Of a DNA stretch of 64,000 nt, positions 1 to 44,359 are shown in pieces (the first letter of the stretch is position 1; every line of letters begins with the position of its first letter). Where the stretch lies: positions 193,721 to 257,720 of the forward strand of contig JBMNEM010000002.1 in assembly GCA_050948785.1 (NCBI GenBank). The letters run 5' to 3'. The notes beneath the pieces were generated by a model that worked only from the letters and a program-made list of their open reading frames with translations, was not told the origin of the DNA and did no database searches. Source of the stretch: Dethiobacteria bacterium (GTDB taxonomy: Bacteria > Bacillota > Dethiobacteria > DTU022 > UBA8154). Both the position numbers and the translations under genes were made by a program.

Positions 1-1437
1 ATCTTGAAATGGCCGTCCAGCCCCTTGGTCGGCTCATCGAGCAGCAGGATTTGCGGCTCCCGCAGCAGCACCTTGGCCAGGGCGGCACGCTGCTGCTCCC
101 CGCCGCTCAAATCATACGGGTGCATTTTTAGCAGCCCGTCAAGCTCAGTCAGCGCACAAACATCCTGCACCTTTTGCCTTTTTTCCTCTTGGGAAAGCCG
201 TGTGCCCGCCAATATCTCGTATAAATCAAGCTCCACCGTTTTTTTAACAAAGAGGAGCTGCGGATTCTGGGGCAGCATGGCGATCCTGTTTAACACCTGT
301 TCCCGCGCATTCGCCGCGCTTGCTTTTAAAATATCCTGGCCGAGGATACGCACCCGCCCGCGGTAAGGCCTCAGGATACCGCCGATAATGGAAAGGGCGG
401 TGGTTTTTCCGGTTCCGTTGCCGCCGACAATGCCGTAAAATTGTCCCGCAGCCACTTCCAGCGACAAATCCTTCACCGCGTCGGGCAGGTCCCGGTCATA
501 TTTGAACCAGATCTCCTGCAACTGGATGTCGGGCGGCCGCTTGGTGTTTGGCCGCGGAGCAGGCTCCTGGCAGCACTGAGCAGCGGGCGCTTCGTGGGCC
601 CTTGCGTTGATAGGCAAAGCGTTGAGCCATTGACGCCCGTCCTGCACGGTAATCGGGCAGGGCAGATCACTATTCACGCCTGCATAGATCTGGACAGGCG
701 AGGGCATGGCGAGAAACAGATCATGTCTCATCTCCTTTAATCGCTCCCCAGCCCGCCGGGGCGTATCATCAATGATGATCTCACCCTCGTCCATTACCAC
801 CACACGGTCGGACATGGGCAGGACTTCCTCCAGCCGGTGCTCGGTCATGATGATCGTCGTGCCCAGTTCACGGTTGATCTTTTTGACTGTTCCCAGAAAA
901 TCCGCCGCGGCGATGGGGTCGAGCTGGCCTGTCGGCTCGTCGAGCACCAGGACGGAGGGTTGCATGGCCATGATGGACGCCAGGTTTAAGAGCTGTTTCT
1001 GCCCGCCGGAGAGCTCCGCAACATTCTTTCTAAACCAGGTCTGGATGCCGAAAAAACTAGCCATTTCAGCCACGCGCAAGCGGATGGTTTTATTGTCCAT
1101 CCCTAAGGATTCAAGCCCAAAGGCCAGCTCATGCCACACCTTATCGGTAACAATCTGATTGTCCGGATTTTGCAGAACAAAGCCTATACTCGCGGCCTGC
1201 GTGCGCCGGTCGCTTTCGGCCAGTGGCCTGCCCTGAAAAAATATCTCACCCTGAGTTTTCCCATGGGGTGTCAGCACTGTTTTGAGATGACGCAAAAGTG
1301 TGCTCTTACCACTGCCCGACTTCCCGCAGACGGTGATAAATTCGCCCTGCTTCACAGTAAGATTGATCTTCTTGAGCGCCGGCTTTTCCCGCAGCGGATA
1401 GGTAAAGCTTAAAGCCCTGATCTGATATGCTTCCATT
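1..1437 (-). CDS. ABC transporter ATP-binding protein with two tandem ATPase domains (fused ECF EcfA1-EcfA2 / CbiO-like); C-terminus runs off the window edge
   Basis: Minus-strand reading frame open from 1437 (ATG, MEAYQIRALSFTYP...) to position 1. It shows two Walker A motifs (GKSGSGKST and GGNGTGKTT), LSGGQ signatures and Walker B DEPT. It is not in the ORF track because it runs off the edge. Its start overlaps the EcfT stop. Confidence 0.8.
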
Positions 1438-2299
1438 TGAGCTCCTCCGCTAGATCGATAATAACCGGCATCAGACATAGGGCGAGATAGGCGCAGTATA
1501 CGCCGAAACTAAAGGCATCTGGCGGCGGCAGCTTAAGAGACGGGAAAAAACGCATCGTGTTGTATCCCGCTGCCGCGCCCGCGAGTATGATCACCACAAG
1601 CAGCAGCATTGCCCCAAAGACAGTTTGGTCCCGCCGGTCAAACCGGAAAATGGAAAAACTGGTGCGCCCCGGCAACCCGTAGCCCCTCGATTTCATGGAG
1701 TCGGCCGTCTCTATGGCGTTTTCCAGCGCCCAGGTCGTCATTATGGAAAGAATTTGCAAGCCGTTTCTCGCCCGCTCGAAAATATTCCCGTTTGTTACGT
1801 TCCTGCCGATGCCCTGCTGGGCAGTGGAGATGACCTGAATCTGCGCCCTGTACCTGGGAACAAAGCGCAGCACCATGGACAAAACCAGCGACAGCGCGGG
1901 GATAATCCTGCCAAACAAATAAACGAATTTATCCGCAGTCATGACGGCGTTGTAGCAGGAAAACCACAAAATGACGGCCATGAACATAGCGGCCGCCGCC
2001 AGGCCGTAAAGGATGGATTCAAGGGTAACGGGATTGCCGTTTTTCAGGTAAAACAAGATGGTCACGCCAGCGTGGTTAAAAGCGGGATTGATGACTGCCA
2101 TGAGCAGCATGCAGGGCAGCAGGTATAAAAGGTTGAACCTGATAATTTTTTTCCCCTTGAGCAGGGTAGAATACAAAAAAGAACAGGTGAGGGAAACACC
2201 CAAAAATACCGGGTGCATGAAGAACATGGAAAACAGCAGCACCGCGGTGAAATATGTGAAATTTACAACAGGGTGAAAGGTGGAAAATGCATCTTTCAT
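1409..2299 (-). CDS. ecfT: Energy-coupling factor transporter transmembrane component EcfT (CbiQ family)
   Basis: 296 aa polytopic membrane protein with the conserved EcfT C-terminal region (ARxxRG-like ...SRGYGLPGRTSF). It sits immediately upstream of the fused EcfA-A' gene. Confidence 0.8.
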   Translation of the reverse strand: MKDAFSTFHPVVNFTYFTAVLLFSMFFMHPVFLGVSLTCSFLYSTLLKGKKIIRFNLLYLLPCMLLMAVINPAFNHAGVTILFYLKNGNPVTLESILYGLAAAAMFMAVILWFSCYNAVMTADKFVYLFGRIIPALSLVLSMVLRFVPRYRAQIQVISTAQQGIGRNVTNGNIFERARNGLQILSIMTTWALENAIETADSMKSRGYGLPGRTSFSIFRFDRRDQTVFGAMLLLVVIILAGAAAGYNTMRFFPSLKLPPPDAFSFGVYCAYLALCLMPVIIDLAEELKWKHIRSGL

Positions 2300-2301
2300 C
2301 G

Positions 2302-3144
2302 TCAGCTTCCTCCCAGCCCTTCTGCATCCAGATCGCAGCTATACACCCACTCGACCATATCGCCGTCCTGCAGCAGGTAGCAGCTGCAGCCGTAGTTGGG
2401 AGACCAACCGTTCACCTTGTACGTCCAGCCCGACAGCTCCCCGCAATCAAATTCATAGATATTGTTGATGCCCTCAATGTAATGGGAGCTGTGGAGAGGC
2501 GTCAAGACAAATTCCAGATGTATTTTATGCTTTTTCATCTCCCGCTGCAGCACATTAAAAACCGATTCGCCCTCATAAAAAACAACGTTTTGGCAGGGGT
2601 AGATTACACCATCCGGCGGCAGCACCTCCAGCTTATCCTGGTTAAAGCGGTCCATATGAGCAAAGATATCATCACAGCGGACCGTTAAGCTGCAGGTCAG
2701 CTGGGATGCGGTGTCTACGGTCACCTCCTGCCAGGCGGCCGGCGCTGGTTTCCCTTCAGGCGCCGGGTTACTTTGCTGTTGGCTCCCCTCTGTCTTTGGG
2801 GTTGCATCTGCATGATTTACGGCGTTTTTTGCAGCCTCCCTTTCCGTTGTTTCACTTTTGGAGCTGCCGCCGTTAAAAACACCAGGTTCGCCCTGCATCC
2901 CGGTTTCCCTTCCAGCCGGCTGTTCCCCTGTTTCTGCGTCGGGATCCGTACCCGGGGGATACATTTCATTAGTAACAGGGGGCAAGTCTTCCCCGGGCTT
3001 TGTAATCCCTGTTCCGGCAGGCGGGTTCTGCCCCGGTTCAGCAGCTTTTTCGCAATAGTTACCCCCATAAAACCAGGCCGCGGCGAGAACACAAACGACT
3101 ACGGCTGCCACGATTATTTTATTTTTTGAAAGCTTTATCTTCAA
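2302..3144 (-). CDS. DUF4430-domain protein (transcobalamin beta-domain-like, putative cobalamin-binding), N-terminal membrane anchor, low-complexity Pro/Glu/Thr linker
   Basis: C-terminal GWTYKVNGWSPNYGCSCYLLQDGDMVEWVY motif typical of DUF4430. N-terminal hydrophobic segment. It lies between the SLH protein and ecfT in a riboswitch-controlled operon. Confidence 0.65.
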   Translation of the reverse strand: MKIKLSKNKIIVAAVVVCVLAAAWFYGGNYCEKAAEPGQNPPAGTGITKPGEDLPPVTNEMYPPGTDPDAETGEQPAGRETGMQGEPGVFNGGSSKSETTEREAAKNAVNHADATPKTEGSQQQSNPAPEGKPAPAAWQEVTVDTASQLTCSLTVRCDDIFAHMDRFNQDKLEVLPPDGVIYPCQNVVFYEGESVFNVLQREMKKHKIHLEFVLTPLHSSHYIEGINNIYEFDCGELSGWTYKVNGWSPNYGCSCYLLQDGDMVEWVYSCDLDAEGLGGS

Positions 3145-3174: not shown

Positions 3175-4818
3175 CTAGCCGAGCGCCGCTTTTTGCAGCA
3201 TTCGATAAACCATGGCGGCGATCTCCGCGCGGGTGATAGCTTCCTGCGGTTTAATTTGCAAAACCTCTGCAGAAAGTATCGCCTGCTGATAGCAAAAGGC
3301 CAAGGGCTCTCCGGCCCAGGCGGAACAAGAAGTATAATCGGGAAACTGCGCCAGCAGATCGCGAATTTCTGTGGCAGTGGGGGCCGTATGCAGGCCGCAA
3401 AGCCTTGCCGCCTGGGCAACCATTACCGCCGCCTGTTCACGGGTAATGGTGCCCCCCGGTGTAAAAGTAGTCTCCGAGGTGCCGTGCACGATCCCATAAG
3501 CATGGGCCGTTGCGACAGCATCTGCATACCAGCTCGTTGCAGCCACATCGGCAAAAACAGCACCCCCTGCCGGAGCAAGCCCCAGTGCCCGCACGACGAG
3601 TGCAGCAAACTCTGCCCGCGTCATGGTGCGTCCGGGCTCAAAGAAAAGGTCGCTGACCCCGCTGATTATACCGCGGGCCGCCAGCGCTTCAATAGCCGCC
3701 TGCTCTTTTAGCCCCTTGATATCTGCAAAGGTTTTACCGGGATTGCAAACCGGGCGGGCTGTCACTGCAGGATCCTTCCCGGGCAGCCCTGCTGCAGCTG
3801 CATTTTGTTCCACAGCAGAAACCTGCACATCGCTCATCTCATAAAAGCCGGTCTTCCCTTTGAGAAAACGATCATAAGCAACCAGGCCGCAAAAAGCCTG
3901 TTCCGTAGCCATAGCGTCCGGCTCCGACTGGGTCAGGATATGTTTGAAACCTCCCCCCGGCACAAAATAGTGCAGCAAATGATCGACAACAGTGTTGCCG
4001 TTCTTAATAAAACGGGCGTCGGCAACAGGATCAATGCCCAGTGCAGTCAGGGCAATAAGCACCTGCGTAACACCTTCCACATTGGCCGCCTCCCAGTAGC
4101 TGGTATAACTGCCATCGCTATTTTGAAGCCTGGAAAGGCAGGTAAGCGCCCGCTCGATCACCTTTTTAATTTCAGCCCGTTCCTGATAGGGTGCCAGTGC
4201 CTGCAGCGCCATCGCCGTAACATCCGCATCACCTGTCCTGCCGCCCAGCGAAAACCCCCCGTCAGCAAGCTGTAGTTCAGTAATAGCCCCGAGCAGCCGC
4301 TCACGCACAACCTGTATCTGCTCACCGGCATGGTCCGGAAAAACATGATGCCACGCATCGAAGGCCAACAGGGCAAAAAGGGGGCCGTTAATACCCTGCA
4401 GGAAGACGTTATCAAAGTCGCCCAGCCTGGCCAGCAGATCATATCCTCCCACATCCGCAGGATTTTTGCCGATAGCAGTCAGAGCTAAGATAGCGCGAGA
4501 GTATTCCGTATATTTATTACCAGGCAGAACGCCCTGATTTTTTACAATTTCATCTTCCAGGGACTGATAATACGCCGTATACCAGCCCGCCGGCACCTTA
4601 AGCCCGGACCGTGCCAGACCGATTAGCGCCCATTCACCGCCAACAGAACCAACCCGGGGACTTTGCACTTTTTTTAACAGATAAGCGCCGGTATCCTTTA
4701 GAGCCTTTTCCAGCGTAACCGGAGCCGCAGCAGCCGGTGCTGCCAAAACGGGAAAACTACTGCTAAGAAAGAGGCAAAGCGTCAGCAGAACTACCAAAAT
4801 ATTTTTAGCCCTGTTCAT
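3175..4818 (-). CDS. S-layer-homology (SLH) surface protein with prenyltransferase/squalene-cyclase-like alpha/alpha-barrel repeats
   Basis: Signal peptide (MNRAKNILVVLLTLCLFLSSSFPVLAAPA), repeated QxxDGGF/QNSDGSY-type alpha-barrel motifs, and C-terminal SLH repeats (FADIKG...AAIEALAARGIISG; FADVAATSWYADAV). Confidence 0.75.
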   Translation of the reverse strand: MNRAKNILVVLLTLCLFLSSSFPVLAAPAAAAPVTLEKALKDTGAYLLKKVQSPRVGSVGGEWALIGLARSGLKVPAGWYTAYYQSLEDEIVKNQGVLPGNKYTEYSRAILALTAIGKNPADVGGYDLLARLGDFDNVFLQGINGPLFALLAFDAWHHVFPDHAGEQIQVVRERLLGAITELQLADGGFSLGGRTGDADVTAMALQALAPYQERAEIKKVIERALTCLSRLQNSDGSYTSYWEAANVEGVTQVLIALTALGIDPVADARFIKNGNTVVDHLLHYFVPGGGFKHILTQSEPDAMATEQAFCGLVAYDRFLKGKTGFYEMSDVQVSAVEQNAAAAGLPGKDPAVTARPVCNPGKTFADIKGLKEQAAIEALAARGIISGVSDLFFEPGRTMTRAEFAALVVRALGLAPAGGAVFADVAATSWYADAVATAHAYGIVHGTSETTFTPGGTITREQAAVMVAQAARLCGLHTAPTATEIRDLLAQFPDYTSCSAWAGEPLAFCYQQAILSAEVLQIKPQEAITRAEIAAMVYRMLQKAALG

Positions 4819-4879
4819 TTAACCACCCTTTCAGAACATCCGACTTGTCATTTTCTTTTTTGAATCAACGTTCTCGCGC

Positions 4880-5032
4880 CTAGAGCTTGATCGACTGCGT
4901 CACCTTTTCCACCCTGACCGGCTGCCCTTCCTGCACCATGATTTTCAGCCTGCCAAAATCGGTGCTGCGTATAATTTCAATGACCTTTTTTTCCTTTGAG
5001 CTTAACCCCGTACCCGTTATCTGTTCATCCAT
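4880..5032 (-). CDS. Small DUF2292/YezD-like protein (50 aa), not in the ORF track
   Basis: Minus-strand ATG at 5032 preceded by GGAGGGAGG. It translates to MDEQITGTGLSSKEKKVIEIIRSTDFGRLKIMVQEGQPVRVEKVTQSIKL. It is a paralogue of the 5560-5716 product (shared ...GQPVRVE...SIKL) and lies between riboswitch 1 and the SLH gene. Confidence 0.55.
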   Translation of the reverse strand: MDEQITGTGLSSKEKKVIEIIRSTDFGRLKIMVQEGQPVRVEKVTQSIKL

Positions 5033-5167
5033 GGCCTCCCTCCTCACACCGTCTTTATTTCACAGACCGGGCCGGCCTGCAGTCCACAAAAGTTTTACCT
5101 CCCATGATCTGTTTGTGTAGGTGTAACATCATTAATATCATTGTTCTATCGACAAATAACAACATAT

Positions 5168-5212
5168 AAAAAACCCCGGCTTTTCCATGCAAAGCGGGGC
5201 TTTTTGCTGTAA
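5168..5212 (-). terminator. Intrinsic terminator/attenuator hairpin of riboswitch 1 expression platform (also terminator-like on the plus strand)
   Basis: On the minus strand: GCCCCGCTTTGCATGGAAAAGCCGGGG followed by TTTTTTATATG. The homologous element at 9820-9862 follows riboswitch 2. Confidence 0.45.
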
Positions 5213-5244
5213 AAGAAATCACTTTCTTAAACAGACAATATCCA

Positions 5245-5435
5245 ATTCACATACACCTTTGCACGGAAGGCTTGTGGAAAACATTTACCGGGCAGGTCTC
5301 CTGGCTTGCAGCTCATCACTTGCTTTCACCTTCCCGAAGAGGCTCTCCAGTGGCATATAATGAAAGTAAATTCCCTGCTTACAGTGGCCGGACCACCCGG
5401 GATTTTCACCCGGTTCCCTTTCAACCCGATTTGGC
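5245..5435 (-). promoter_or_regulatory. Cobalamin (AdoCbl) riboswitch 1
   Basis: The reverse complement contains AAAGGGAACCGGGTGAAAATCCCGG ... GCCACTGTAAGC ... ATGCCACTGGAGAG ... GGGAAGGTGA ... AGCCAGGAGACCTGCC, i.e. the GGTGAAAATCC core plus the B12 box GCCACTG. It is upstream of DUF2292 gene 1 and the SLH/DUF4430/ECF operon. Confidence 0.8.
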
Positions 5436-5559
5436 ATCGGATCTACCCTGATAAAACCTTTATTCAATTTTTTAAATTAAACTTCAACCTTATTTAAAAA
5501 ACGGAAACACTATTCCAGTTTAAAATTGGAATAGCGCCTCCGTTGTTCGGTCAGCACCT

Positions 5560-5716
5560 TTAAAGCTTAATTGACTTTTTGATTTCTTCAACCCGTACAG
5601 GCTGCCGATCTTCTACCGCAATAACCATTTCACCATAACTGATTCCGCGCAGAATCCGGATAAACTTTCTTTCCCTGGGGGTTAATTCATCATTAAAGCC
5701 GTTATTCACTGTTTTG
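5560..5716 (-). CDS. Small DUF2292/YezD-like protein (about 52 aa; TTG start after AGAGAGGTG). The longer 5560-5811 ORF overlaps the riboswitch and is probably over-extended.
   Basis: C-terminal region ...FIRILRGISYGEMVIAVEDRQPVRVEEIKKSIKL is paralogous to the 4880-5032 product. Riboswitch 3 lies directly upstream. Confidence 0.5.
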
Positions 5717-5724
5717 CTTACAGC

Positions 5725-5905
5725 CAAGTTAAACACCTCTCTATTTCCCGTAGAGTTTCTGGTGCAAAAAACAGGCAGGCTTTCTGGCTTCGGGTCATCG
5801 CTCTCCCCCACCTTCCCGGTTTCCCAGTGGCATTCCGGGGGAAACTTCCCCTTTTACAGCGGCGGAACCGCGCGGGATTTTCACCCGCTTTCCTTTTACC
5901 GGCAT
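5725..5905 (-). promoter_or_regulatory. Cobalamin riboswitch 3
   Basis: The reverse complement contains GGTGAAAATCCCGCGCGGTTCCGCCGCTGTAAAAGGGGAAG...AATGCCACTGGGAAACCGGGAAGGTGG...AAGCCAGAAAGCCTGCC. No separate terminator is present, so control probably acts at translation. Confidence 0.75.
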
Positions 5906-6093
5906 GGACTATATTCCAGTGCATACTCCTGACCGGCACCTGTTTATGAAATAATCTTCAATTAAGAACATAATATCCCAACAGCCCCCTCTTGTCAATA
6001 ACCGGTTCTCCCCCATCTAAAAGCCTTTGGGGCTGCCCTTGTATTAAAGAGCAGCCCTTTAGCTGTGTCAGCATATCTGTATAGGCGGAAAAA

Positions 6094-9000
6094 CTACTCC
6101 AAGGGGGAAAGCCGGTAAAGCATCACCGCCGCCTGGGCACGGTTGGCATTTTGCAAGGGGGCAAAAGTGCCATCTCCCATGCCGGTTATAATCCCCTGAA
6201 TTGTGCAAAGGCCAACACCGTCTTTTGCCCACACTGCAATCTCATCCCTATCGCTGAAAATCCCCAGTTCCTGTGCAGCAGCTCCCTCAGATCCTTCCGG
6301 GCGGAGAACCCTGCCGATAATCGCAGCCATCTCCTGCCGGGTGATTGAACTTTCCGGATCGAATACCGTTGCGCTTCTGCCGCTGAGGATGCCATGATGG
6401 TATGCCCGGGCCACAGCTTCGTAATACCAGCTATTTACATGAACATCGGTAAAAGGCAGCTCCATCCCCGTATCATTGTAACCCAGCAAACGGGTAACCA
6501 AGGCGGCGAATTCTGCACGGGTAATCCGGGCACCGGGCTCAAAAACCCCTTCCCCCCGGCCGCTGATAATCCCCGCGGCGGAAAGTACCCCGATGGCCTC
6601 CCTGGCCCATTCATAGCCCTGCAAGTCGGTAAAAGGTATTTTAGTTTCTTTTTCCTGAGACTGCATGACAGTATAGAAGCTTAGGTGGTCTGTGAAGAAA
6701 GCAAATGTCTGCGTTTCCGGATCGTACTCCCCGCCCAGGCCGATAGGCACCAGAAGGCCCTCACCGTCATTTTCCAGTCGCACTCCTGTTAACCAGGCGC
6801 TTTGTTCCGGAGACAGCTTACCTAAGTGGGAAAAGTCTATAGTTATTTTTATCGGTTTGCTATATTTATCAAGTTCTTTTCCAGTGTTCCGCTCCTCCTG
6901 GGCGGTGTCAACCACCGTCAGGGTTATCTCATAAATCCCGCTTCCAACACCGACAAACCCGGCAGTTCCCTCCGGCACGTCTTTGGAAAGGATCTCCTGC
7001 TGTTTGTTGGCAGCGAGTTCCTGGACAAACACCTCTATCTGCGAATTATCGGCGGCGGTTAGCCGGGCAAATTCCTCGGTTAACAAAGCACCGCCGGCCA
7101 GTTCAACCTTAATACCCTTGTTTTCTAGCACGATCGCATGTTCTTCATTAACATTTTTAAGAAAATCCGGTGAAAAAAGCACTTTCCCGTCGGCCTTTTC
7201 CTCAAGGCTGAGCTTGGCTACGCCTGTTTGCTGCAGGTTTTCCTGCAAGGCCCGGTCATCAGCTGAAGAAGGTTGGAAGGTTTCCTTTGTTGCCCCCCCA
7301 CCGCCTCCTCCGCTACTACTCCATCCTTCCGAACCTTCCTCTTTTGTAAAATCATCAGTATAATAAAAAACCACGGCATCGCCTTGTTTCAACAAATATT
7401 CGTTTAGAGCCAGCGTAGTATGTTTACCATTGACCTTGTACATCCAACCACTAAGGGGGCCTTTGTCAAGTTCGTTAAGCCATTCCCCACTGGGCGCTTT
7501 GATGCCACTGACATAGCTGTCGTAAGACGCCCTGTATTCCATGCCTTTTTCAGATAGCACTTTGTCAAACATATCAAAGACCGTAGCCCCCTGCGGCATC
7601 TCCACACTGGTAGTTGGTATCCAGGTCTGCCCGCTATCACCGGTGAGTTTGAAGGTGACGGTAATATTACTTTCCTCGCTAGAGCCACCTGTACCTTCAT
7701 AGGTTACCGCTACGGTTGTATCTGCAGTTATGGTGAAGGTATATTTGTTATCCTCCAGGTCTGCTTTCTTGTCTTCACCGTTGACGGTAAAGGTGGCTAC
7801 CTGCTTGCCTGCCGGAGCTGTTACCGTTATCGTTACTGCAGTGTTCTCTTCAATTTCTCCAGCATCAGAAGTTGATGTTAATCCTTCGCCTGTTAAGGTT
7901 AAAGTGTAAGTAGCCGGTTCCGCTGTTTCGATCTTTAGTATAAACTCTTCGCTGGCAGCATCCCCCCCCAGGGCAGCAGCCCCGGCCTGGATGCTGATCT
8001 CGCCAACTGCAGCGGTACCTGTAAAAGCGACGGTCACCTTTTGAGCAGCGTCTTTGGTGATTTCCTCAACAGAAAGCCCGGTTTCTCCGGTATCAATTGT
8101 CCAGTTGTCCAGATCTTTTGTTTCTGCCGGATCTGCATATTCATCACCAACCAGGTTTATTTCAACCCGGGGATCTACCTCGCCGACGTCAATAACCGCT
8201 TCGCTAGAAAGTACAGGCCACCTGCTGTAGTAGAAGAACACCTCATCATTTTCTTGAACAATATAGTCGGCAGCACCAACGTCAGGGGAAACCCCGTTTA
8301 CTGTGTACGTCCAACCGTCCCAGCCGCCAAAAGCACCATTTTCCTCACCTGCAATAGAGTTGACCAAAATACCCCAATCAAAATACTGCAATTCATAGGG
8401 AATCCCCTTGGCATCCAAGCCCTGCTCCAGAACATCAAGGGCCGTCGGCTGATCGCCGGTGGTCAGCACTTCAACTTCTGCAGTAGGAAAAATTGTTTCC
8501 GTCTTTCCTTCCACCGTTAACTTCACAACTACCTTTTGGGGCTCGGCAAACTGTATCTGGCCCATTCTATGCCTTGTGGATTCACCATGTTTTAAATCTG
8601 CCAGGGCCAAAAGGGCCTGCACGGTGCTCATTTTTACCCCACCGGCAGTACCCTCTTTATACCAAAAACTGCCGTCCTCCTGCTGGTATTTTAGCAGGAC
8701 GTCAAGCACTGTTTGGCCATCTTTTACCCATCGCCCTTCCGGGTTCAGCACATCTTCTCCCACAGCAACTAATCCGGAGATAACTGCAGCGTTGGAATTA
8801 CAGTTTTCCTCTCCCCACATGCCCTCCAAAGCAAAACCGGCGTTGTCCTGCTGCTTACTATGCAGGAAGTCAATGGCTTTTCCAATTGCTTCCTGTGCAT
8901 TGGATTTTTTCTGGTGGTTGGATAAAGCCGTCAGCGCCCAGCCCGTATAGTCCAACTGGCTGAAGGCTCCAAAGCTGCCATCATCGTTTTGCTGGTTGAT

Positions 9001-9564
9001 CAGGTGCGTTATAGCCATCAGCTGACATTGAGTATTACCCCAGCCATCCACAACACCAAGTTCTTCGCCCACATCCAAAAGTACTATGGCCCAGATATGC
9101 TTTCCCAGGTCGCCAAATGCGCCGTCTGGTGGAATCTGGGGAGGACGCCGCTGCTGATCCGCCAGTTCTGCAAAAAGGTTCCTGCCGTTCCATATGTCGG
9201 CAGGGTTTTTCCCCACTGCCAGCAGCTTGAAAATGTAATAAATGTGCTCGTTTCCTGTTGTATTCGCTGCAAACCCGGGATCGTTCTCCCGCCACCCCTG
9301 GCCAGTCCCCCACGGTGCTTCATTTAAATCCTCACCAACGCCCCAAAGCGCCGGCAAACCTTCCCAGGAGTCGGGTGAAGGGTGGTTCGTTTGATACCAA
9401 GCGACTGCATTTGCTATCGATGCCTCCAAATCTGCTCCTGTTTCAACACCGCCACTGCCGGCCATAACAGGCAATGGACCTATTATAGAAAAGATCATGA
9501 ACAGGCTTAAAAAATATACCGGCCATTTTTTCAACACGCTTCGCTTTAATAACAACCTTAACAA
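6094..9564 (-). CDS. Large S-layer-anchored surface protein: signal peptide, prenyltransferase-like alpha-barrel domain, two DUF4430 domains, Ig-like/Thr-rich repeats, three C-terminal SLH domains
   Basis: 1156 aa. DUF4430 motifs GWTYTVNGVSPDVGAADYIVQENDEVFFYY and SGWMYKVNGKHTTLALNEYLLKQGDAVVFYY. SLH repeats at the C-terminus (FTDLQGYEWAREAIGVLSAAGIISG etc.). Preceded by riboswitch 2. Confidence 0.8.
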   Translation of the reverse strand: MLRLLLKRSVLKKWPVYFLSLFMIFSIIGPLPVMAGSGGVETGADLEASIANAVAWYQTNHPSPDSWEGLPALWGVGEDLNEAPWGTGQGWRENDPGFAANTTGNEHIYYIFKLLAVGKNPADIWNGRNLFAELADQQRRPPQIPPDGAFGDLGKHIWAIVLLDVGEELGVVDGWGNTQCQLMAITHLINQQNDDGSFGAFSQLDYTGWALTALSNHQKKSNAQEAIGKAIDFLHSKQQDNAGFALEGMWGEENCNSNAAVISGLVAVGEDVLNPEGRWVKDGQTVLDVLLKYQQEDGSFWYKEGTAGGVKMSTVQALLALADLKHGESTRHRMGQIQFAEPQKVVVKLTVEGKTETIFPTAEVEVLTTGDQPTALDVLEQGLDAKGIPYELQYFDWGILVNSIAGEENGAFGGWDGWTYTVNGVSPDVGAADYIVQENDEVFFYYSRWPVLSSEAVIDVGEVDPRVEINLVGDEYADPAETKDLDNWTIDTGETGLSVEEITKDAAQKVTVAFTGTAAVGEISIQAGAAALGGDAASEEFILKIETAEPATYTLTLTGEGLTSTSDAGEIEENTAVTITVTAPAGKQVATFTVNGEDKKADLEDNKYTFTITADTTVAVTYEGTGGSSEESNITVTFKLTGDSGQTWIPTTSVEMPQGATVFDMFDKVLSEKGMEYRASYDSYVSGIKAPSGEWLNELDKGPLSGWMYKVNGKHTTLALNEYLLKQGDAVVFYYTDDFTKEEGSEGWSSSGGGGGGATKETFQPSSADDRALQENLQQTGVAKLSLEEKADGKVLFSPDFLKNVNEEHAIVLENKGIKVELAGGALLTEEFARLTAADNSQIEVFVQELAANKQQEILSKDVPEGTAGFVGVGSGIYEITLTVVDTAQEERNTGKELDKYSKPIKITIDFSHLGKLSPEQSAWLTGVRLENDGEGLLVPIGLGGEYDPETQTFAFFTDHLSFYTVMQSQEKETKIPFTDLQGYEWAREAIGVLSAAGIISGRGEGVFEPGARITRAEFAALVTRLLGYNDTGMELPFTDVHVNSWYYEAVARAYHHGILSGRSATVFDPESSITRQEMAAIIGRVLRPEGSEGAAAQELGIFSDRDEIAVWAKDGVGLCTIQGIITGMGDGTFAPLQNANRAQAAVMLYRLSPLE

Positions 9565-9904
9565 GAAAATCTCCTCCCTTTGGTTTCTGCTTTCCTGTTT
9601 TCAAAACGTTTCCTTAAAATACTTTTTATAAGGCTGAAAATTTACTGGGTTACATCTCCCCTTCCCCTTTGTTTGATCGTTAGCCGGCCTCCCCTCAACC
9701 GCCTACTACCCACCTTTTGGCGTTATGATTAGGACGGTTTTTCTACAGCACAAACCTTAATTTTTGTTGTTTGTAATCAACCCCCTGGCCATCACTTATG
9801 ACAGCTCTAAAAGACGCTACAAAGCCCCGGCTTCCATGCACAGCCGGGGCTTTTATGCTGCAATAAAAGAATTGGCCTTTTAAACAGGCATTTTTCCAGC
9901 TCAC

Positions 9905-10080
9905 CCAGACCTTTGCACGGAAGGCTTGTGAAGTATCGTCAAGGCAGGTTTCCTGGCTTGTGGCTCATCGTAGCTTTCACCTTCCCGGATAGCTCCAGTG
10001 GTATGCTGAAAGCTGCTCCCCACTTACAGTGGCCGGACCACCCGGGATTTGCACCCGGTTCCCTCTTCCACCCGCTCCTG
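9905..10080 (-). promoter_or_regulatory. Cobalamin riboswitch 2 (paralogue of riboswitch 1, about 85% identical)
   Basis: Same aptamer sequence as 5245-5435 (GGTGCAAATCCCGG ... GCCACTGTAAG ... GCCACTGGAGCTATCCGGGAAGGTGAAAGC). A terminator-like hairpin at 9820-9862 follows it on the minus strand. Confidence 0.8.
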
Positions 10081-10149
10081 TCAGCGGATCACCTTGACAA
10101 TGTTGTTTTAAATATTAATTTTAGAAGATACTTTTCAATTTTTCCATAA

Positions 10150-10200
10150 AAAAAGGCACTATCCTGGATAGTGCCTCCGTTGTTCGGTCAGCATAACAAA
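10150..10200 (-). terminator. Intrinsic terminator (GGCACTATCCAGGATAGTGCC + T7) downstream of the 10421-11185 gene. A homologous module (CTGACCGAACAACGGAGG + hairpin) sits at 5500-5555.
   Basis: Perfect 9-bp stem with a T-run on the minus strand. The shared flanking sequence shows the leader modules were duplicated as units. Confidence 0.45.
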
Positions 10201-10420
10201 CAGCAACTTTTTGCCGTTTTTTTTCCGTAAAAGTTTTATATGAACATTTATTTCACCAAAATGGTGTTGTTTGTTAATTATATATTTAACACCTATTGTT
10301 GCTAAATTTATTATTCTACATTCCCCGGAACATTTCCTGTCAGGTTATAATTTTATTTAACTACTGTTAGAAAATCTTTTTCGGAATTCGTTAACCCCTT
10401 TTTCCACCAGGCAAACAGGT

Positions 10421-11185
10421 TCACATGTCTTTGAAAAAATCTAAAAAAGCCTTCGCTTCAGCTGTAAAGCCGTAAGCTTCGCTGACCAGGGCAATTTCCG
10501 GGTTGCCCTGCAGCAGGCGCAGCCCGGAAAAATCGATCTCCCCACGGCCCGGGGGAAGGTGTTCATCATCTATCCCGCAATTATCATGAATATGCAGGTG
10601 TGCCAGATGCTCCCCCAGCAACCGGATCCACGCTCCCAGGGTAAGCCTGGAAGAGAGATGGGCATGTCCCGTATCAAGGCAGGCCCGGAAAAGAGAATCA
10701 TCAAAAATTTCCAGCAACCGGCTAATCAATTCCGGGTTTGGATCCCAGACATTTTCCAGAACAATCTTGATCCTTTCCCGCTGGCAGAGGGGCAGAAATC
10801 CTTCCCAAAAACGGGTGGCGTTCTCCAGCCAGTTATCGGCATACTCCGGATACTTAAAAAGCGGATTATAACAGGAATGCACGACCATTACCCGGCAGCC
10901 CAGTTCTTTGCCCAATTGAAGCGCTTGGGCAAAGCGCCGGTGGGCCAGTTGCTGTACCTGGCGATCCATGCTGCTGGGAAAGAGCTCTTTAAAAGGACCG
11001 TGCAGGGAAAGGGTCCCCCGGAAGTCCTTCAGCAATGCCTGATACTGCCTGACAATTTCACCCGCATAGTAATCCAGGTTAGCGGGAAGAGCAAAATCCT
11101 GGATCTCCAAATGGTCAAAATGGGTCAGGTAAAATGACGGTTCCTTTTTCAATAAATCGAGAAAAATGCCGCAACCCAGCTTCAT
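10421..11185 (-). CDS. Sugar phosphate isomerase/epimerase (xylose-isomerase-like TIM barrel)
   Basis: 254 aa with a TIM-barrel pattern including ...VVHSCYNP..., ...IVLENV..., ...GHAHL.... Family assignment is by overall resemblance. Confidence 0.6.
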   Translation of the reverse strand: MKLGCGIFLDLLKKEPSFYLTHFDHLEIQDFALPANLDYYAGEIVRQYQALLKDFRGTLSLHGPFKELFPSSMDRQVQQLAHRRFAQALQLGKELGCRVMVVHSCYNPLFKYPEYADNWLENATRFWEGFLPLCQRERIKIVLENVWDPNPELISRLLEIFDDSLFRACLDTGHAHLSSRLTLGAWIRLLGEHLAHLHIHDNCGIDDEHLPPGRGEIDFSGLRLLQGNPEIALVSEAYGFTAEAKAFLDFFKDM

Positions 11186-11319: not shown

Positions 11320-11470
11320 GAGCCATATTCATTCTTTTTTAGCTGTACAAAGACCGACGTCGTCTTTTGCCCACACGGTGATCTCTCCCTGTCGCTGAAA
11401 ATTTTCAGTTCTTGTGCGGAAGCTACATCAGGCCCCTCCGGCCGGGAAATCCTGCCAATGATCGTAGGCA
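11320..11470 (-). pseudogene. Remnant of an SLH-domain surface protein gene (3' fragment only)
   Basis: The product ...IIGRISRPEGPDVASAQELKIFSDRERSP... matches ...IIGRVLRPEGSEGAAAQELGIFSDRDEIAVW... near the C-terminus of the 6094-9564 protein. Nucleotide homology to 6230-6340 is also evident. Confidence 0.5.
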
Positions 11471-14400
11471 TTACCTTTTATATTTTCAACAGCGATGATG
11501 ATCTCACTCCGCAAGTCTTTTATTCGTTGCTCAATACGCTCTAAATAATCATCGCCCAAAAATCGCCGAAGGGTTTCCAACTCGGCACGGAAACGTTTCA
11601 TTCCCCTTTTGGAAACTTTTCCATCCATTTCTTCTATCGTCAGCCGGCGTAAGGTATACTTTGGTAAGGTCTGGTACTCCTTTAAATCGCGCAGCAGGGT
11701 TTGAATAAAGGGCAGGTATTCTTCCAAATCGGCAGCATGCTTTTCCCAGGCACTGCGTAGGTTGTTTTCGGCCTTGACAAGCAAAGATTGTTCACTGGGG
11801 CGCATGTGTATTTGCTCACGGTAGTTCTTGATTGCCTCGTAAGCGGGCCAAAATAAAGGACTTAGGGTCTCGCGGGGCGTTTCTGGCCAGCAGTGAACAC
11901 ACGGCAGCGCTTTTTCAAGAATTAGGGGACGTACCACTGGCTTTTTGCTTGCCGTATCAGGTACGGTGTGGATAAAAAGCTGCAAACCTTTCCGGCGGAA
12001 GACCAGCAGTTCATTTTGTTTGGCTATTTTCGCCGTTTTCACCCTTGCGGGAAAATCAGCCAGCCCGGAGATCAAGTCCGGGTATTGCGCCTGCATTGCA
12101 AAAAATTCCCGCCGGAGCGTCGTCAGCAGGCTTTCCTCTTCGCCTTCCTCCGGATTACGGTTGATGCGTCTGAAAAGTTCGGCGGGGGAAGGGGTTTCAT
12201 CCGGAGCAAAAATTTTCGCATCTTCACCCAGGGTATTGTGGATCAAGAACATCTTCTGTGCTGCTATTTCACGGCTTTTAACCACTTCAGCGCCCTGTTC
12301 CGTTGGAAAAAAGTTATAGATATACAATGTCCGGAAGACCTTGCGCCCAATACGGTTGATGCGTCCCAGCCGCTGAATGACACGCGTAGGGTTCCAGGGA
12401 ATATCATAGTTAACCACCGCACCGGCCCGGTTCAGGTTTATCCCTTCAGAAAGTTTATCAGTAGCCACGAGGATATCGAAATCATCACGCTGCCTTTCTG
12501 CCGCATGGCCGGCATCGAAATTGGCATTCAGATCATCGAAAAAACCCTTGCCCAGCGAACCTTCAGCTACCAGCACACGTTCAGGAAAGGCGGCCTGCAA
12601 AACGGGGGCAATGTGTTTCACTGTATCCTGATATTCGCTGAAAATAACAACCTTGCGGCGCGGTTCACCGCTACCGGGTTGGGCTTCTATAATCTCCCGC
12701 ACAGCTTCCACAAGGCGTTTGCTTTTCGGATCGTTCACTGCCAGTTCCAAAGCCTCCACCCGATCGGCAATTTGTTGGAACAGCTCCAGATCTGAGCGGA
12801 TATCCGCAAGGAACTGTTCCGGTTCATCAAAATCTTTAATAACATAAACGTGATCCTGGTGCGGCCTCAGGTTTTTTTCTGCCGCCAGGCGCGCCGCGAA
12901 TTGCCGCAGCTCCTCCTCGATGGTTTCTTCGTCTTCTTCCCAGATTTTTTCTATTAAATTTCGGTCCAGAATATATTGGCCTGTTTTTTGGATGAAAGCC
13001 AAAATAATAGAATGAACGCTCCTAAAATTAGCCATGCTTTTGACAAAAGCGCCAAAGGAACTTTCGAAACGTTTGACCAACAGCCGGCGCATAAATTCGT
13101 ACAGGTTGCGCTGCTGCAGGTAGGCAAAATTACCCTTTTCATCCAGCTGTTCTAATTCACTGCTGTGTTCGTAAGCAAAGGGCTGGTAAATGGCACCCCG
13201 GAATTGTCCTTCCTCGCCGAAATATTCATTAATTACCTGGTTGTAGAAAGCCGATTGTGCGGTAGTTAGTTCGTAAAACAGCTCAACGGGATCGGCAACC
13301 CCGGAGAGCTTGGCAATTTCCTGGGCATACACCGGATCGCGTTTCAGGTCGAGCCGGTTACGGCGGATGATAACAGGTTCTATAACCGCACGGATTTCAT
13401 CTGCCAGCTGCCTTACCCGTTGCTGGGTGCGAATTACATTGATAGGCGGCGGGGTTTCAAAAATATCGGTATAGAATCTTTCAGCCCGGGCTTGTTTTTC
13501 ACCACCGGCGCTGTGGTAACGGAGGATGTATGAAAGCTTGCGGAATTCACTATTGTACCGGGCAAAGCGGGCAGCCAGCCCTTCATCAAGGGTCAGCGTT
13601 GATTTGCCCGGCGGGATAAAAAGTTTGAGCAGGGCAAAAATATCTGCCGGCGCATTGTTGAAAGGAGTTGCCGTCAACAGGATAACACCCCGGTTGGCAC
13701 AGATCTGGCTTAGGCGTTCATAAGCCGCCGTGTCTTCATTGCGGAAGCGGTGTGCCTCATCCACCACAATAGTAGTGACCTCCTCGCCGTACATTTCAAG
13801 ATATTCCTGTACCTTGTCCAAAGCCCCCAGGGAATAGACTTCCCAGTCATATAGTTCAAAGTCGTTCAGGTATTTATACCAGCCGGTAGCTTTGGTTTGT
13901 CGATCACCGATCAAAGCCGGGGGGCAGATCACAAGCCCGCGGCCACCTCGTTCCCGCGCCAGCCAACTGGCGATCACCGATTTCCCCAGCCCAACCACGT
14001 CGGCCAAGATCACGCCGCCATATTCCTCCAGCACGGTGAGCGCCTGCTGCACGGCCTCTTCCTGGTAACGATACACCCTGTAGCCCCGTTCTTCCATTAA
14101 ATGTTTAATCTGCGGGCGAAGCACTTTTTGTTCCATCAAATCCAGGTAGGTTTTAAGCACCAGGGCGTAAGCCTCAAAAGGCGAAATTCCCGCCACCTGG
14201 GTTTGCCGATTGATGATACGGACAATCTGCTCCTTGCGTTCATCAAGTTCGCTAAGCGGGATAGCTGTCGACCACAGATCGTCAAAATATGCTTCCGCAT
14301 CTCCCCAACCATAATCGCTGATTTCCACGTTGAATTCATGCTGCCCCAACAAACCGGCGCGGGTCAGATTGCTGGAACCGGTAATAAAGCGCCCGGGCGC

Positions 14401-14857
14401 ATCGATGAGTGATTGCCCGGCCTCATCCAGGCGGAACAGGTAAAGTTTGGCGTGGTTGGGATCCAATGTTTTGCGGATATGCAGACGGCCCTCTTCCAGA
14501 AGATGCAAAAAGAAAGAAACCTGTCCATAAAATTCTTGCGTATCCAAGGCTTCATCTTGCAGCGCAGTGCGCAAAGAGGCAAAGAAGCGCCCCACAAGTT
14601 CCTGCTGGGTGCTGCCGGCTGCCTCTGGATCGGCCACCTCCAACACCCGGCCCAAACGCAGATCGGTATCCATCCCCACCAGAATTTTGAAGATGCAGGT
14701 CATCGCTGCGCCCCTTTAGCGCCTCATAAAGCTCCCGCCAGCCGGAAAAATAGAAGAAACCCACCAAAAATTTCAGTTCCCGGCTATGCTGGATGAGCGT
14801 ATGAATGCGGCCTTTAAGACTGCGTTGCCTGGCGTTGGTGATGAAATTTTTAGCCAT
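11428..14857 (-). CDS. PLD-family nuclease (HKD) fused to an SNF2/DEAD-like helicase; one apparent frameshift near 14700
   Basis: The N-terminal piece MAKNFITNARQ...LKFLVGFFYFSGWRELYEAL (14857-14700) continues in another frame as ...HAKLYLFRLD...GSSNLTRAGL (HKD motif). Helicase motifs I (DVVGLGKS), II (DEAH) and later motifs follow. The total is about 1140 aa. Confidence 0.7.
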
Positions 14858-42790: not shown

Positions 42791-42995
42791 CGGCAATGGT
42801 TTTAGCCATACCGTTAACCTATCCCATAAATTATTCCTAATGAGAGCCACCATTTCCGGCTCTCTTTTTCCTTCCACTATATACAGCAAGTTCAGCTTTC
42901 CCGTTTACCAGCCACAAGGTACGTCCCCGCGGTTGGTACACCACAAACACCCGCCACAAGGTACGTCCCCGCGGTTGGCCTGCCCGCGGTTGGCC
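42791..42995 (+). repeat. Composite repeat unit A (CCATACCGTTAA box, terminator-like hairpin GAGCC...GGCTCTC + T-run, then 2-3 GC-rich 25-mers)
   Basis: Unit shared with 43690-43850 and 44171-44330. Confidence 0.6.
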
Positions 42996-43214
42996 TTCGA
43001 ATCGCCCGTTACCCCCTTCCCTTTAAAGTTGACTGGTTGCCTATCTCCACATCTCGTAGAGATAGGCGGGAGAATGCCGCCGCGGCACACGGTTGATGCG
43101 GCAGCGCCGACAGGTTGGTCCAGGCCGGGATAGTATCTTTTTGAATTTTCATAACACTCAAGGAACGGGGAACAGATTGTGTTTTCTCTACCAGTGTGGT
43201 AAGATACCTTTGAG

Positions 43215-43420
43215 TTGCTGAATGCACAGCAACGAAATTGAATAGTGAAACGATGTGAGTGAATGGAAAGTGGGTGAAAGTCCCACACAGTCGCCGCTGC
43301 TGTAAGCATTACACGCGCTTATCATTATGCCACTGGAGAAATATTTACTCTGGGAAGGCGGTAAGTGTTAGATGCGAGTCAGAAGGCCGGCTCTCATCGG
43401 TTTGTCAGACCTTTCGGTGC
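43215..43420 (+). promoter_or_regulatory. Cobalamin riboswitch 4 (plus strand), orphan: no ORF downstream
   Basis: AATGGAAAGTGGGTGAAAGTCCCACACAGTCGCCGCTGCTGTAAGC ... TCATTATGCCACTGGAGAAATATTTACTCTGGGAAGGCGGTAAGTG...AGTCAGAAGGCCGGC parallels riboswitches 1-3 (GGTGAAA.TCC core, GCCACTGGAG...GGGAAGG). ORF 43259-43552 merely overlaps it. Confidence 0.65.
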
Positions 43421-43689
43421 AAAAGGACTGTCAGGATCAAGGTGTTCCCGTTTACCGGGAAGAGGCTTTTCGTAGCTACCAGGCGGAGGCTACAGGATAA
43501 TAACAATCCTGCTTTCTTTAAGCAAAAGAAGGTAGGATTTTTTTATCACTGATTTTCAGGAAAAGAAAGTTCGTATGGATGGCATACAGGAACTTTGATG
43601 AACAAGGCAGAGAATAATACGGTGTTAATGAAAATGGCAGCGGAGTATTGATAGAACATAGGATGACAAAAAGGAATAACAACATAATT

Positions 43690-43850
43690 TGACCATACCG
43701 TTAAACCCATATGGGAGCCACCTTACTGGCTCTCCTTTTTTTCCTGCCACTGTATACATGGCAGGTTCAGCACACACCAGCCACAAGGACCGTCCCCGCG
43801 GTTGGGACCGGAACCAGCCACAAGGACCGTCCGGGACCAGTGAAAAAGTC
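43690..43850 (+). repeat. Composite repeat unit B (best-preserved copy: GGGAGCCACCTTACTGGCTCTCC-T7 hairpin, CTGCCACTGTATACATGGCAGG hairpin, two 25-mers)
   Basis: See units A and C. Confidence 0.6.
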
Positions 43851-43949
43851 CCTATTAAATCACGTTAACACGTTAACACGTTAATAAGGGCAACCCCAAT
43901 CCAAAACCAAAAAAGGCTTTCCAAGCATTGTTTTTGTAGGTTTTTCAAC

Positions 43950-44012
43950 AAAAAACCCCCATAAATGGTATAATAGGTACGACCAAATACCGACCATTAG
44001 GGGGTTTTTTCA
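43950..44012. terminator. Bidirectional intrinsic terminator-like hairpin (A6-CCCCCATAAATGG...CCATTAGGGGG-T6)
   Basis: G/C-rich stem flanked by an A-run and a T-run. It lies between the plus-strand riboswitch region and the 3' end of the minus-strand V-ATPase operon. Confidence 0.4.
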
Positions 44013-44170
44013 TGCTTCGACTAGAGCCAAAGCAATTAAGTTTTCACTCATCATTATACAATAAAATTCCGGAAAATCATATACTAAAAAAGGTGGAATC
44101 AGTAGTGGACTTTAGTTTTATCAATGGTTTGTTAAAAAGATACCTATTGTAAAGAATTTGGGCGACCTGC

Positions 44171-44330
44171 ATAGCCCTGGCTATACCGTTAATTGCTTAT
44201 GAAACTACCATTTCCAGCTCTCTTTTTTCTGCCATTGCACCAACCACAAGCACCAGCCACAAGGACCGTCCCCGCGGTTGGGCACCAACCACAAGCACCA
44301 GCCACAAGCACCGTCCCCGCGGTTGAGGGG
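44171..44330 (+). repeat. Composite repeat unit C (degenerate hairpin, two 25-mers)
   Basis: CTATACCGTTAATTGC...CCATTTCCAGCTCTCTTTTTTCTGCC...AGCCACAAGGACCGTCCCCGCGGTTGGG...AGCCACAAGCACCGTCCCCGCGGTTGAG. Confidence 0.6.
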
Positions 44331-44359
44331 CGACTGCCACTGCACAGGTACATTTCCGC

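Follow-up and report, generated by a model that had tools for sequence, protein, structure and literature searches.

A 64,000-nucleotide stretch of contig JBMNEM010000002.1 (the window) carries three Cobalamin riboswitches within 5 kb of its minus strand, and two of them (riboswitches 1 and 2) share leader sequence on both sides of the aptamer. The question raised by this locus is what the shared leader sequence is and how it came to be present twice. The sequence-only reading of the window had proposed a recent duplication of a complete promoter-riboswitch-attenuator cassette, with the element 5' of each aptamer acting as a terminator. Our analysis leads to a different answer. We consider it likely that the locus is a corrinoid-scavenging regulatory region in which three B12 riboswitches are combined with two copies of a conserved RNA module (copies A and B), the module most likely being a conditional terminator that gates the downstream genes. 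The coordinates of the features are given in Table 1.

A conserved RNA module in B12-uptake operons

The consensus of the module begins with (A)UGCUGA, continues with a small hairpin (arms C-N-N-G and C-N-N-G around a loop of AAAA or ACAA) and proceeds to AGGCACUAYC, which opens a second hairpin closed by GRUAGUGCC and followed by a run of U. The sequence AGGCACUA opens this hairpin 2 and lies 3' of both GCUGA and the small hairpin with its A-rich loop. We found that the window copies and most of the others have at hairpin 2 the stable stem and U-run of an intrinsic terminator, and termination activity is predicted. The arms of the small hairpin co-vary, with the combinations CCGG/CCGG, CCAG/CUGG, CUAG/CUAG and CUGG/CCAG. 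In a 15-sequence alignment 89.7% of the cells of the module pairing could pair, compared with 31-53% when the register was slid, and compensatory changes were seen in 8 of the 13 pairs, a result reached by 1 of 500 shuffles.

A covariance model (R1) was built from the module alignment and used to search the window and approximately 0.9 Mb of other loci, which are designated here by L numbers. R1 found exactly two copies in the window, and elsewhere it matched only B12/DUF2292 operons. Two instances in L040 that were outside the training set scored 54.8 and 51.8 bits, while the next-best match anywhere scored 28 bits. When the window (4700-10500) and L139 (2840-3300) were compared with the 4227 Rfam models at a permissive E-value, the module gave only noise (mir-290, SL2) far below the gathering scores. 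The module is conserved in L069, L127-L133, L040, L134-L140 and L057, and its carriers include Tissierella sp., Clostridiisalibacter paucivorans, Maledivibacter halophilus, Marinisporobacter, a Peptoniphilaceae-like contig and metagenome-assembled genomes (MAGs) of Peptococcaceae. These comparisons point to a conserved, structured and apparently undescribed two-hairpin RNA element. A conserved, co-varying element in distant genera is more than a mere preceding terminator, and that part of the earlier interpretation was not upheld.

The position of the module is tied to DUF2292 (YezD) genes. A DUF2292 profile search returned at least 841 relatives, and 11 genomic contexts were sampled (L127-L140). 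Every one of them lies in a B12-uptake operon. In 10 the DUF2292 gene is directly followed by a gene for a DUF4430 or toroid/SLH protein, in L138 such a gene lies one gene away, and in most a Cobalamin riboswitch is present within about 1.2 kb upstream. Of 12 first-or-only DUF2292 genes, 11 have a module that starts 2-20 nt past their stop codon, and the remaining one, that of L040, has it one gene further downstream. The native position of the module is just after the DUF2292 stop codon, inside B12-uptake operons. In the window, copy B begins 3 nt past the stop codon of the small gene small3, and copy A, which contains the exact 18-mer at 10174-10191, has no DUF2292 gene upstream. In the strain variant L064 (94% identical overall) the sequence is 100% kept from the first base of module A onward, while the preceding 90 nt are scrambled. 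L069 is from a different organism, and its module lies 50 nt 5' of a riboswitch of the same subclass. Since the neighboring gene there is divergent, this hairpin is not the terminator of an upstream gene.

The leader duplication is old

In a blastn comparison of the two leaders, 10193..9818 and 5556..5167 align at 74% identity with gaps counted; the edges are sharp, and no alignment extends past them. The shared cassette spans 375-390 nt. It contains the 18-mer CTGACCGAACAACGGAGG and the 22-mer CACAAGCCTTCCGTGCAAAGGT, each of which occurs exactly twice in 64 kb with approximately 0 occurrences expected by chance. The proposal of shared flanking leader modules was thus borne out. The flanks are more alike than the aptamers, with the module 92% and the hairpin-to-terminator segment 85% identical. 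The aptamers, which had been put at roughly 85% identity over about 190 nt, are 79% identical over aligned bases and 73.5% when gaps are counted. Global identity over aligned bases is inflated (unrelated flanks reach 67-77%), and identity over the full alignment length is therefore quoted too.

The proteins encoded 3' of riboswitches 1 and 2 are only 29-38% identical. This indicates that the leader cassette spread independently of the coding genes, in agreement with the earlier view of a duplicated leader cassette. The word "recent" did not hold. In an identity matrix of whole cassettes the window copies A and B are 70% identical, no nearer than cross-species pairs (65-79%), and copy A shares 78% identity with the B copies of L127 and L130 and 73% with the A copy of L130. 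L130, a locus of another species (its DUF2292 protein is 67% identical), has an identical layout of three riboswitches and two modules, in the order module and riboswitch, large surface protein, riboswitch-3-type element, DUF2292, module, riboswitch, DUF2292 and SLH protein. Because the copies within a genome are not the closest pairs, the data argue against both recent duplication and gene conversion. The cassette duplication is, by sequence comparison, real but old: the unit from module to terminator would have been copied long ago, before these species split, and both copies would have been retained by selection. Integron attC-like or mobile-element edges were considered for the cassette and rejected, as the core-site consensus did not fit by inspection.

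Two related loci carry cassettes in other states. In L007, the MAG of Pelotomaculum sp. UBA10960, two module-less cassettes (6290-6790 and 9100-9700) are 92% identical, with similarity that extends about 170 nt past the terminator and one copy broken by a run of N. This locus has an SLH-domain pseudogene fragment 5' of a 546-aa gene, with no DUF2292 gene and no module, and the pair is either a recent duplication or an assembly collapse. In L133 (4617-4800) a module is followed by a riboswitch that has lost the 5' part of its aptamer and has no Rfam match; the hairpin, terminator and DUF2292 gene are still present, and this appears to be a decaying copy of the cassette.

Four Cobalamin riboswitches in the window

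All 4227 covariance models of Rfam 15 were scanned over the whole window. The three regions that had been read as paralogous Cobalamin riboswitches within 5 kb matched RF00174 over its full length with 98.5-119.7 bits, far above the gathering score of 31.5 bits. The B12 box and core (GGGAA..GGUG..AAUCC, GCCACUG, AGCCAGGAGACCUGCC) are present in the RF00174 alignments and are invariant in a three-way alignment of riboswitches 1-3. Each of the three thus combines a score over the full model and the conserved core with an expression platform and an association with B12 genes. The locus with all three riboswitches recurs in six independent biogas/digester metagenome contigs at 99.5-99.98% identity, which excludes an assembly artefact. 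The three aptamers are, by sequence, genuine B12 riboswitches, new members of a known family and otherwise ordinary, with corrinoid binding predicted. Two corrections were required. Riboswitch 3 had been placed at 5725-5905, a shifted interval that misses about 50 nt of the 5' side of the aptamer and includes the expression platform, and the list of three had overlooked the riboswitch at 43240-43409 (+).

This fourth riboswitch has a P13-like hairpin CCUUUCGGUGCAAAAGG and a weak hairpin with a U-run, and no open reading frame lies 3' of it. Its flanks (42850-44350) contain a family of direct repeats of about 44 nt at 42892-42977, 43761-43832 and 44237-44325, and a transposase N-terminal fragment lies nearby at 44012-44152. 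The element appears to be a leader orphaned when rearrangement removed its gene.

Riboswitches 1 and 2 probably control transcription

The hairpin GCCUUCCGUGCAAAGGU is identical 3' of riboswitches 1 and 2, and a strong GC hairpin is found about 60 nt further on in both. A 22-mer of the riboswitch 1 platform is identical to that in riboswitch 2. Behind both riboswitches a similar GC hairpin with a T-run had been described as an attenuator. Both hairpins fold and terminator 2 has a U6 tail, but at terminator 1 only UUU directly follows the stem and is succeeded by GUAGCGUCUUUU. A pattern scan of metagenomes retrieved dozens of relatives with this platform, and 29 non-redundant ones were analyzed. 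The architecture was kept in these 29, and the 5' arm and loop of the hairpin are complementary to the loop of the terminator and the first part of the terminator's 3' arm; in the window CUUCCGUGCA can pair with UGCAUGGAAG. The mean duplex energy was -9.5 kcal/mol for cognate, -8.3 for swapped and -5.2 for shuffled partners, and the cognate mean was reached in 0 of 20,000 permutations, although both the partner-swap and the shuffle statistics are inflated by sequence relatedness. Because of this kinship we regard the antiterminator evidence as supportive, not as proof.

Riboswitches 1 and 2 are probably transcription attenuators with terminator-type platforms, and we infer that they switch as follows. 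With B12 bound, the hairpin GCCUUCCGUGCAAAGGU 3' of the aptamer would be kept closed and the downstream terminator would form. Without B12, the 5' arm and loop of the hairpin (CUUCCGUGCA) would pair with the loop and 3' arm of the terminator (UGCAUGGAAG), and transcription would proceed.

Several observations concern this platform and its relatives. The U-tract of the riboswitch 1 terminator (9809-9821 (-)) reads UUUGUAGCGUCUUUU, and a single C-to-U change in L064 lengthens it to GUAGCGUUUUUU; the strength of this terminator may vary between strains. Module-less relatives of the subclass (L023, L024, L055, L074, L088, L092, L125 and others) have a conserved pyrimidine tract, CAUnUUAUCUCCUUCUUCC, right after the terminator U-run. 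This tract is anti-Shine-Dalgarno-like and is absent from the window. In L078 (4381-4953) and L116 (3607-4145) a pair of full Cobalamin riboswitches, separated by 155-178 nt, stands in direct tandem 5' of a homolog of the 1156-aa surface protein, and the first of the pair has its own hairpin and terminator.

Riboswitch 3 is best read as a translational switch

The 3' arm of the hairpin behind riboswitch 3 overlaps the Shine-Dalgarno sequence AGAGGUG (5740..5734), which is 7 nt 5' of the UUG start codon of small3. The loop sequence CGGGA is complementary to aptamer loop L5 (UUCCG) over 5 bp. The hairpin with its Shine-Dalgarno sequence, the promoter and the DUF2292 gene are all kept in L040, L127 and L130. 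The small3 protein had no Pfam match at E<0.01; it belongs to the DUF2292 profile family and is a paralog of small2 (46% identity, E=9e-13, BLASTP). Translational control is the best reading of riboswitch 3, as had been suggested from the missing terminator and the abutting small gene, since the hairpin covers the Shine-Dalgarno sequence. The hairpin, with a loop able to kiss aptamer L5, would bury the DUF2292 Shine-Dalgarno sequence.

Riboswitches 2 and 3 are probably connected in series

All 15 module-less relatives of the subclass carry, at a fixed position, a promoter match of 9/12 or better, which is typically TGGACA, 17 nt, TAGGAT. Cassettes with a module score 7-9, and among these the riboswitch 1 cassette of the window is alone in reaching 9/12 (Mann-Whitney p=0.001, small numbers). 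The best promoter match of riboswitch 2 is 7/12. Of the two cassettes of the window, only that of riboswitch 1 has a plausible promoter of its own, and the idea of a complete promoter-riboswitch-attenuator cassette was not sustained. Another promoter (TTAGCA, 17 nt, TATAAT at 10305..10277) that would read through module A was rejected, as it is not conserved in L064.

Module B, with its strong hairpin and U6, stands between riboswitch 3, whose promoter matches 11/12, and riboswitch 2. Transcription that starts at the riboswitch 3 promoter probably reads through small3 and module B into riboswitch 2. Independent B12 control of each surface gene, as first proposed, does not describe this arrangement: riboswitch 3 serves a DUF2292 small protein, and riboswitches 3 and 2 are probably in series. 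One unit would consist of module A, its own promoter, riboswitch 1 and the 1156-aa surface binder. The other would run from the strong promoter through riboswitch 3, DUF2292, module B, riboswitch 2, DUF2292, the SLH/toroid protein and the DUF4430 protein to the ECF transporter.

What the module may do

In L134, L139 and L137 the Shine-Dalgarno sequence and start codon of the next gene lie within 14-20 nt of the module. Because this leaves no room for a promoter, these genes need read-through of the module. Two copies, that of L069 and the third one of L040, have a promoter-like site about 35-40 nt on their 5' side, with no gene in between. These arrangements are most economically explained if the module acts as a conditional terminator within operons and leaders.

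The partner of such a terminator could be DUF2292 itself, which is a candidate because of its strict co-occurrence with the module. It is possible, although we hold this with low confidence, that the invariant GCUGA, the mini-hairpin and AGGCACUA form a DUF2292/YezD binding site in a new class of cis-regulatory RNA acting as a conditional terminator. If true, a riboswitch would control DUF2292, which would open or close the module terminators placed before capture and transport genes and before further B12 riboswitches. Such a riboswitch-to-protein-to-attenuator cascade would also give a function to a widespread domain of unknown function. An AlphaFold2 model of DUF2292 consists of a helix and a beta-hairpin (pLDDT 71). 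Foldseek against the PDB found nothing below E=3, and sequence and profile searches of the PDB found nothing significant. With no informative structural neighbor in the PDB, the structure speaks neither for nor against RNA binding. The literature on DUF2292/YezD amounts essentially to a genome announcement.

Other explanations have to be set against this. The recent duplication of a whole cassette, with the module carried along as the terminator of the previous gene, would fit the sharp edges of the homology, the terminator-like place of module B right behind the small3 stop codon, and the 92% identical pair in the related MAG L007. The within-window identity of 70% and the shared architecture of L130 stand against it, as do the covariation of the module in distant genera without a riboswitch behind it, the divergent upstream gene in L069 that leaves nothing to terminate, and the short distance to the next gene in L134, L139 and L137. 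This explanation is already largely refuted by the comparative data, and we regard it as very unlikely. A constitutive intrinsic terminator or RNA-stabilizing 3' hairpin, which would keep the ratio of DUF2292 to downstream product high and sense no signal, would account for the stable hairpin and U-run in most copies. Partial terminators inside operons are common. A plain terminator, however, needs no invariant single-stranded GCUGA, no co-varying mini-hairpin and no conserved A-rich loop. In addition the AGGCACUA/UAGUGCC arms are conserved in sequence across different classes of Firmicutes, and the module is also found at the start of leaders without an upstream gene (L069 and the third L040 instance). 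We consider a purely constitutive role unlikely.

The module might also encode a leader peptide (MLTEQRR...) whose translation melts the terminator, so that attenuation would be ribosome-mediated and coupled to the translation of DUF2292. Of the 8 copies in the window's clade, 6 have an AUG or GUG in front of CUGACC, and the tiny open reading frame starts 3-7 nt after the DUF2292 stop codon and enters the hairpin. The start codon is absent in L064 (ACG), L069 (GGG), L137 and L057, the frame relative to GGAGG differs in Tissierella, synonymous "codon" changes are not seen, there is no Shine-Dalgarno sequence in front, and the distance from stop codon to module varies from 2 to 20 nt. The reading frame MLTEQRR was rejected on the missing starts, shifting frames and lack of synonymous variation, and we find this mechanism hardly credible. 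If the module were itself a small riboswitch, binding for instance a corrinoid precursor, a lower ligand or a metal, and formed a two-input gate in series with the B12 riboswitch, this would explain about 25 highly conserved nt with a built-in terminator. The serial arrangement, each element with its terminator, resembles tandem riboswitches of different classes. The module is nevertheless very small and structurally simple, shows no evident alternative pairing and matches no Rfam class, and its strict co-occurrence with DUF2292 is more typical of a protein-RNA pair. This too seems improbable.

Some of our results weigh against the conditional terminator and the B12-controlled leaders as we describe them. 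In the clade of the window the small module hairpin has only 3 bp (CCG-AACAA-CGG). The U-run of the module is interrupted or displaced in L138, L139 and L140, where hairpin 2 may not always terminate. When the invariant 12-mer of the module was compared with the rest of each cassette by RNAduplex, its intramolecular partner was no better than in shuffled controls. The module might act instead on RNA stability, processing or translation. For the riboswitches, the U-tract of the riboswitch 1 terminator is poor and interrupted, the L5-L13 kissing interaction of riboswitches 1 and 2 has only about 3 bp, and in L130 the riboswitch-3-type loop, CGAAAGA, fails to match L5. The promoters, the read-through and the termination are all predicted from sequence.

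Probable genes for corrinoid capture and import

Read from high to low coordinates on the minus strand, the gene order is an SNF2/PLD helicase, a xylose-isomerase-like TIM-barrel gene and then module A. A leader of 250 nt separates the riboswitch 1 terminator from the 1156-aa gene. A decayed DUF2292 gene in this leader was considered and rejected, as tblastn gave no match in 9564-9820 and the alignment was poor. At the other end the operon runs past the low end of the window, and on longer contigs of the same organism (L001) it continues with fused ECF ATPases (TIGR04520/04521) and then an ECF S component, for which only weak family matches were obtained.

The DUF4430 matches are clear (96 and 54 bits). 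The toroid matches are weak, above the cut-off in the 547-aa protein only (29.2 vs 26.1) and below it in the 1156-aa protein, and the toroid regions of the two proteins are 29% identical. Against the PDB the 1156-aa protein gave sequence matches in the SLH region only, and in NCBIfam neither DUF2292 nor the DUF4430 protein nor the T component has a family. Transcobalamin-type B12 binders carry DUF4430 as their C-terminal domain (PMC4350170). Little literature links DUF4430 with cobalamin. Because of this domain we read the locus as a cell-surface corrinoid-capture system feeding an ECF importer, with B12 binding predicted and the 1156-aa protein as the predicted corrinoid-capture protein under riboswitch 1. 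The closest named genome is the MAG of Pelotomaculum sp. UBA10960, in which the 547-aa protein is 62% and the ECF components are 84-90% identical, and a scan of genome contigs with the 547-aa protein gave a single relative. The host is a Pelotomaculum-like Firmicute from anaerobic digesters.

At 11428-16475 (-), upstream of the locus, lie genes for a 1091-aa protein with SNF2-helicase and PLD domains and for an Eco57I-type methylase of 541 aa, which look like a defence or restriction-modification pair unrelated to the B12 locus.

Table 1. Features of the probable corrinoid-scavenging locus and of the orphan riboswitch, with positions counted from the first base of the window.
Feature	Position	Strand	Description and basis
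Module copy A	10146..10195	(-)	UGCUGACC-GAACAAC-GGAGGCACUAUCC, hairpin, U7; R1 56.1 bits, E=8e-12; -17.6 kcal/mol
Candidate promoter of riboswitch 1	10118..10146	(-)	TGGAAA, 17 nt, TAAAAT, 9/12; promoter scan; kept in L064
Cobalamin riboswitch 1, aptamer	9926..10111	(-)	RF00174 119.7 bits, E=1.9e-29, model 1-189
Platform of riboswitch 1	9809..9925	(-)	Predicted by folding: hairpin GCCUUCCGUGCAAAGGU (9925..9909), spacer, terminator AAAGCCCCGGCU/AGCCGGGGCUUU (9853..9821)
1156-aa surface protein	6094..9564	(-)	Alpha/alpha-toroid-like N-terminal region, 2x DUF4430, 3x SLH; Pfam
Strong promoter-like site of riboswitch 3	5970..5998	(-)	TTGACA, 17 nt, TATTAT, 11/12; kept in L127, L130
Cobalamin riboswitch 3, aptamer	5757..5958	(-)	RF00174 98.5 bits, E=2.3e-23, model 1-189
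Platform of riboswitch 3	5728..5756	(-)	Hairpin CUCUA-CGGGAAA-UAGAG (5755..5739), from sequence; no terminator
small3	5560..5727	(-)	55-aa DUF2292-family protein, UUG start; BLASTP and profile family
Module copy B	5496..5558	(-)	UGCUGACC-GAACAAC-GGAGGCGCUAUUCCA, 18-bp hairpin, U6; R1 60.6 bits, E=6e-13; -29.4 kcal/mol
Cobalamin riboswitch 2, aptamer	5274..5465	(-)	RF00174 114 bits, E=8.3e-28, model 1-189
Platform of riboswitch 2	5167..5273	(-)	Predicted by folding: hairpin 5271..5255, spacer, terminator 5204..5168 with U6
small2	4880..5032	(-)	50-aa DUF2292 protein; Pfam PF10055 26.8 bits, cut-off 22
547-aa secreted alpha/alpha-toroid protein	3175..4818	(-)	3 SLH; Pfam SQHop_cyclase_C 29.2 bits (cut-off 26.1) and SLH
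280-aa DUF4430 protein	2302..3144	(-)	Pfam 53.6 bits
296-aa membrane protein, ECF T-component-like	1409..2299	(-)	L132/L133 ortholog matches PF02361 CbiQ
Fourth Cobalamin riboswitch, orphan	43240-43409	(+)	RF00174 82.1 bits, full model

Comparison with known systems

Dehalobacter restrictus has five Cobalamin riboswitches, each 5' of a corrinoid operon and repressed by cyanocobalamin (PMC4285132), and Desulfitobacterium hafniense also has multiple Cobalamin riboswitches according to Choudhary et al. 2013 as cited there. The riboswitches of the window resemble those of Peptococcaceae in having full-length aptamers with a B12 box, platforms that terminate or sequester the Shine-Dalgarno sequence, several elements per genome, and corrinoid transport and salvage genes as targets. 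The aptamers show no essential difference. Here, however, three lie in 5 kb and two share an extended cassette, and the regulated genes encode SLH-anchored toroid/DUF4430 proteins and DUF2292 small proteins. Several B12 riboswitches in one corrinoid-uptake locus are normal for anaerobes of the Peptococcaceae type, and the riboswitches by themselves add little. The module is a candidate new RNA element that is compact, conserved, supported by covariation, absent from Rfam and present in several classes of Firmicutes. Placed in series with the B12 riboswitches, it suggests that corrinoid scavenging has a second regulatory input. The strong gene-neighborhood link to B12 uptake across distant genera is a first functional lead for DUF2292/YezD.

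Tandem riboswitches place two complete elements, each with a terminator, in one leader, as in the SAM-I and AdoCbl riboswitches of Bacillus clausii metE. Similarly, riboswitch 3, the module with its terminator, and riboswitch 2 with its terminator would be sequential checkpoints on what we infer to be one transcript. The arrangement differs in that a translated DUF2292 gene stands between the elements and the middle element is no known riboswitch.

Protein-dependent attenuators of Firmicutes include the RAT sites of LicT and SacY, the ANTAR/EutV targets, and the PyrR and TRAP sites. The module resembles them in combining a short conserved sequence with a small hairpin just 5' of, or overlapping, an intrinsic terminator in a leader or intergenic region. 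In sequence and structure, however, it corresponds to none of them: it lacks the RAT consensus, carries no GAG/UAG repeats and finds no match in Rfam. An ANTAR target consists of two tandem hairpins with hexanucleotide loops that have a conserved A1 and G4, the second hairpin overlapping the terminator. The module has instead a single small hairpin, of 4 bp with an AAAA or ACAA tetraloop (AACAA also occurs), and the hairpin that comes next is its terminator.

The operon resembles ECF-CbrT importers and transcobalamin binders in encoding the T, A/A' and S components of an ECF transporter along with DUF4430 and predicted alpha/alpha-toroid proteins, the two domain types of transcobalamin. It differs from these systems in that the S component is weakly matched and the binders, for which B12 binding is predicted, are SLH-anchored at the surface of a Gram-positive anaerobe. 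SLH-anchored proteins with both transcobalamin domain types are a possible means of B12 capture at the Gram-positive cell surface, which bears on the competition for corrinoids in syntrophic and digester communities.

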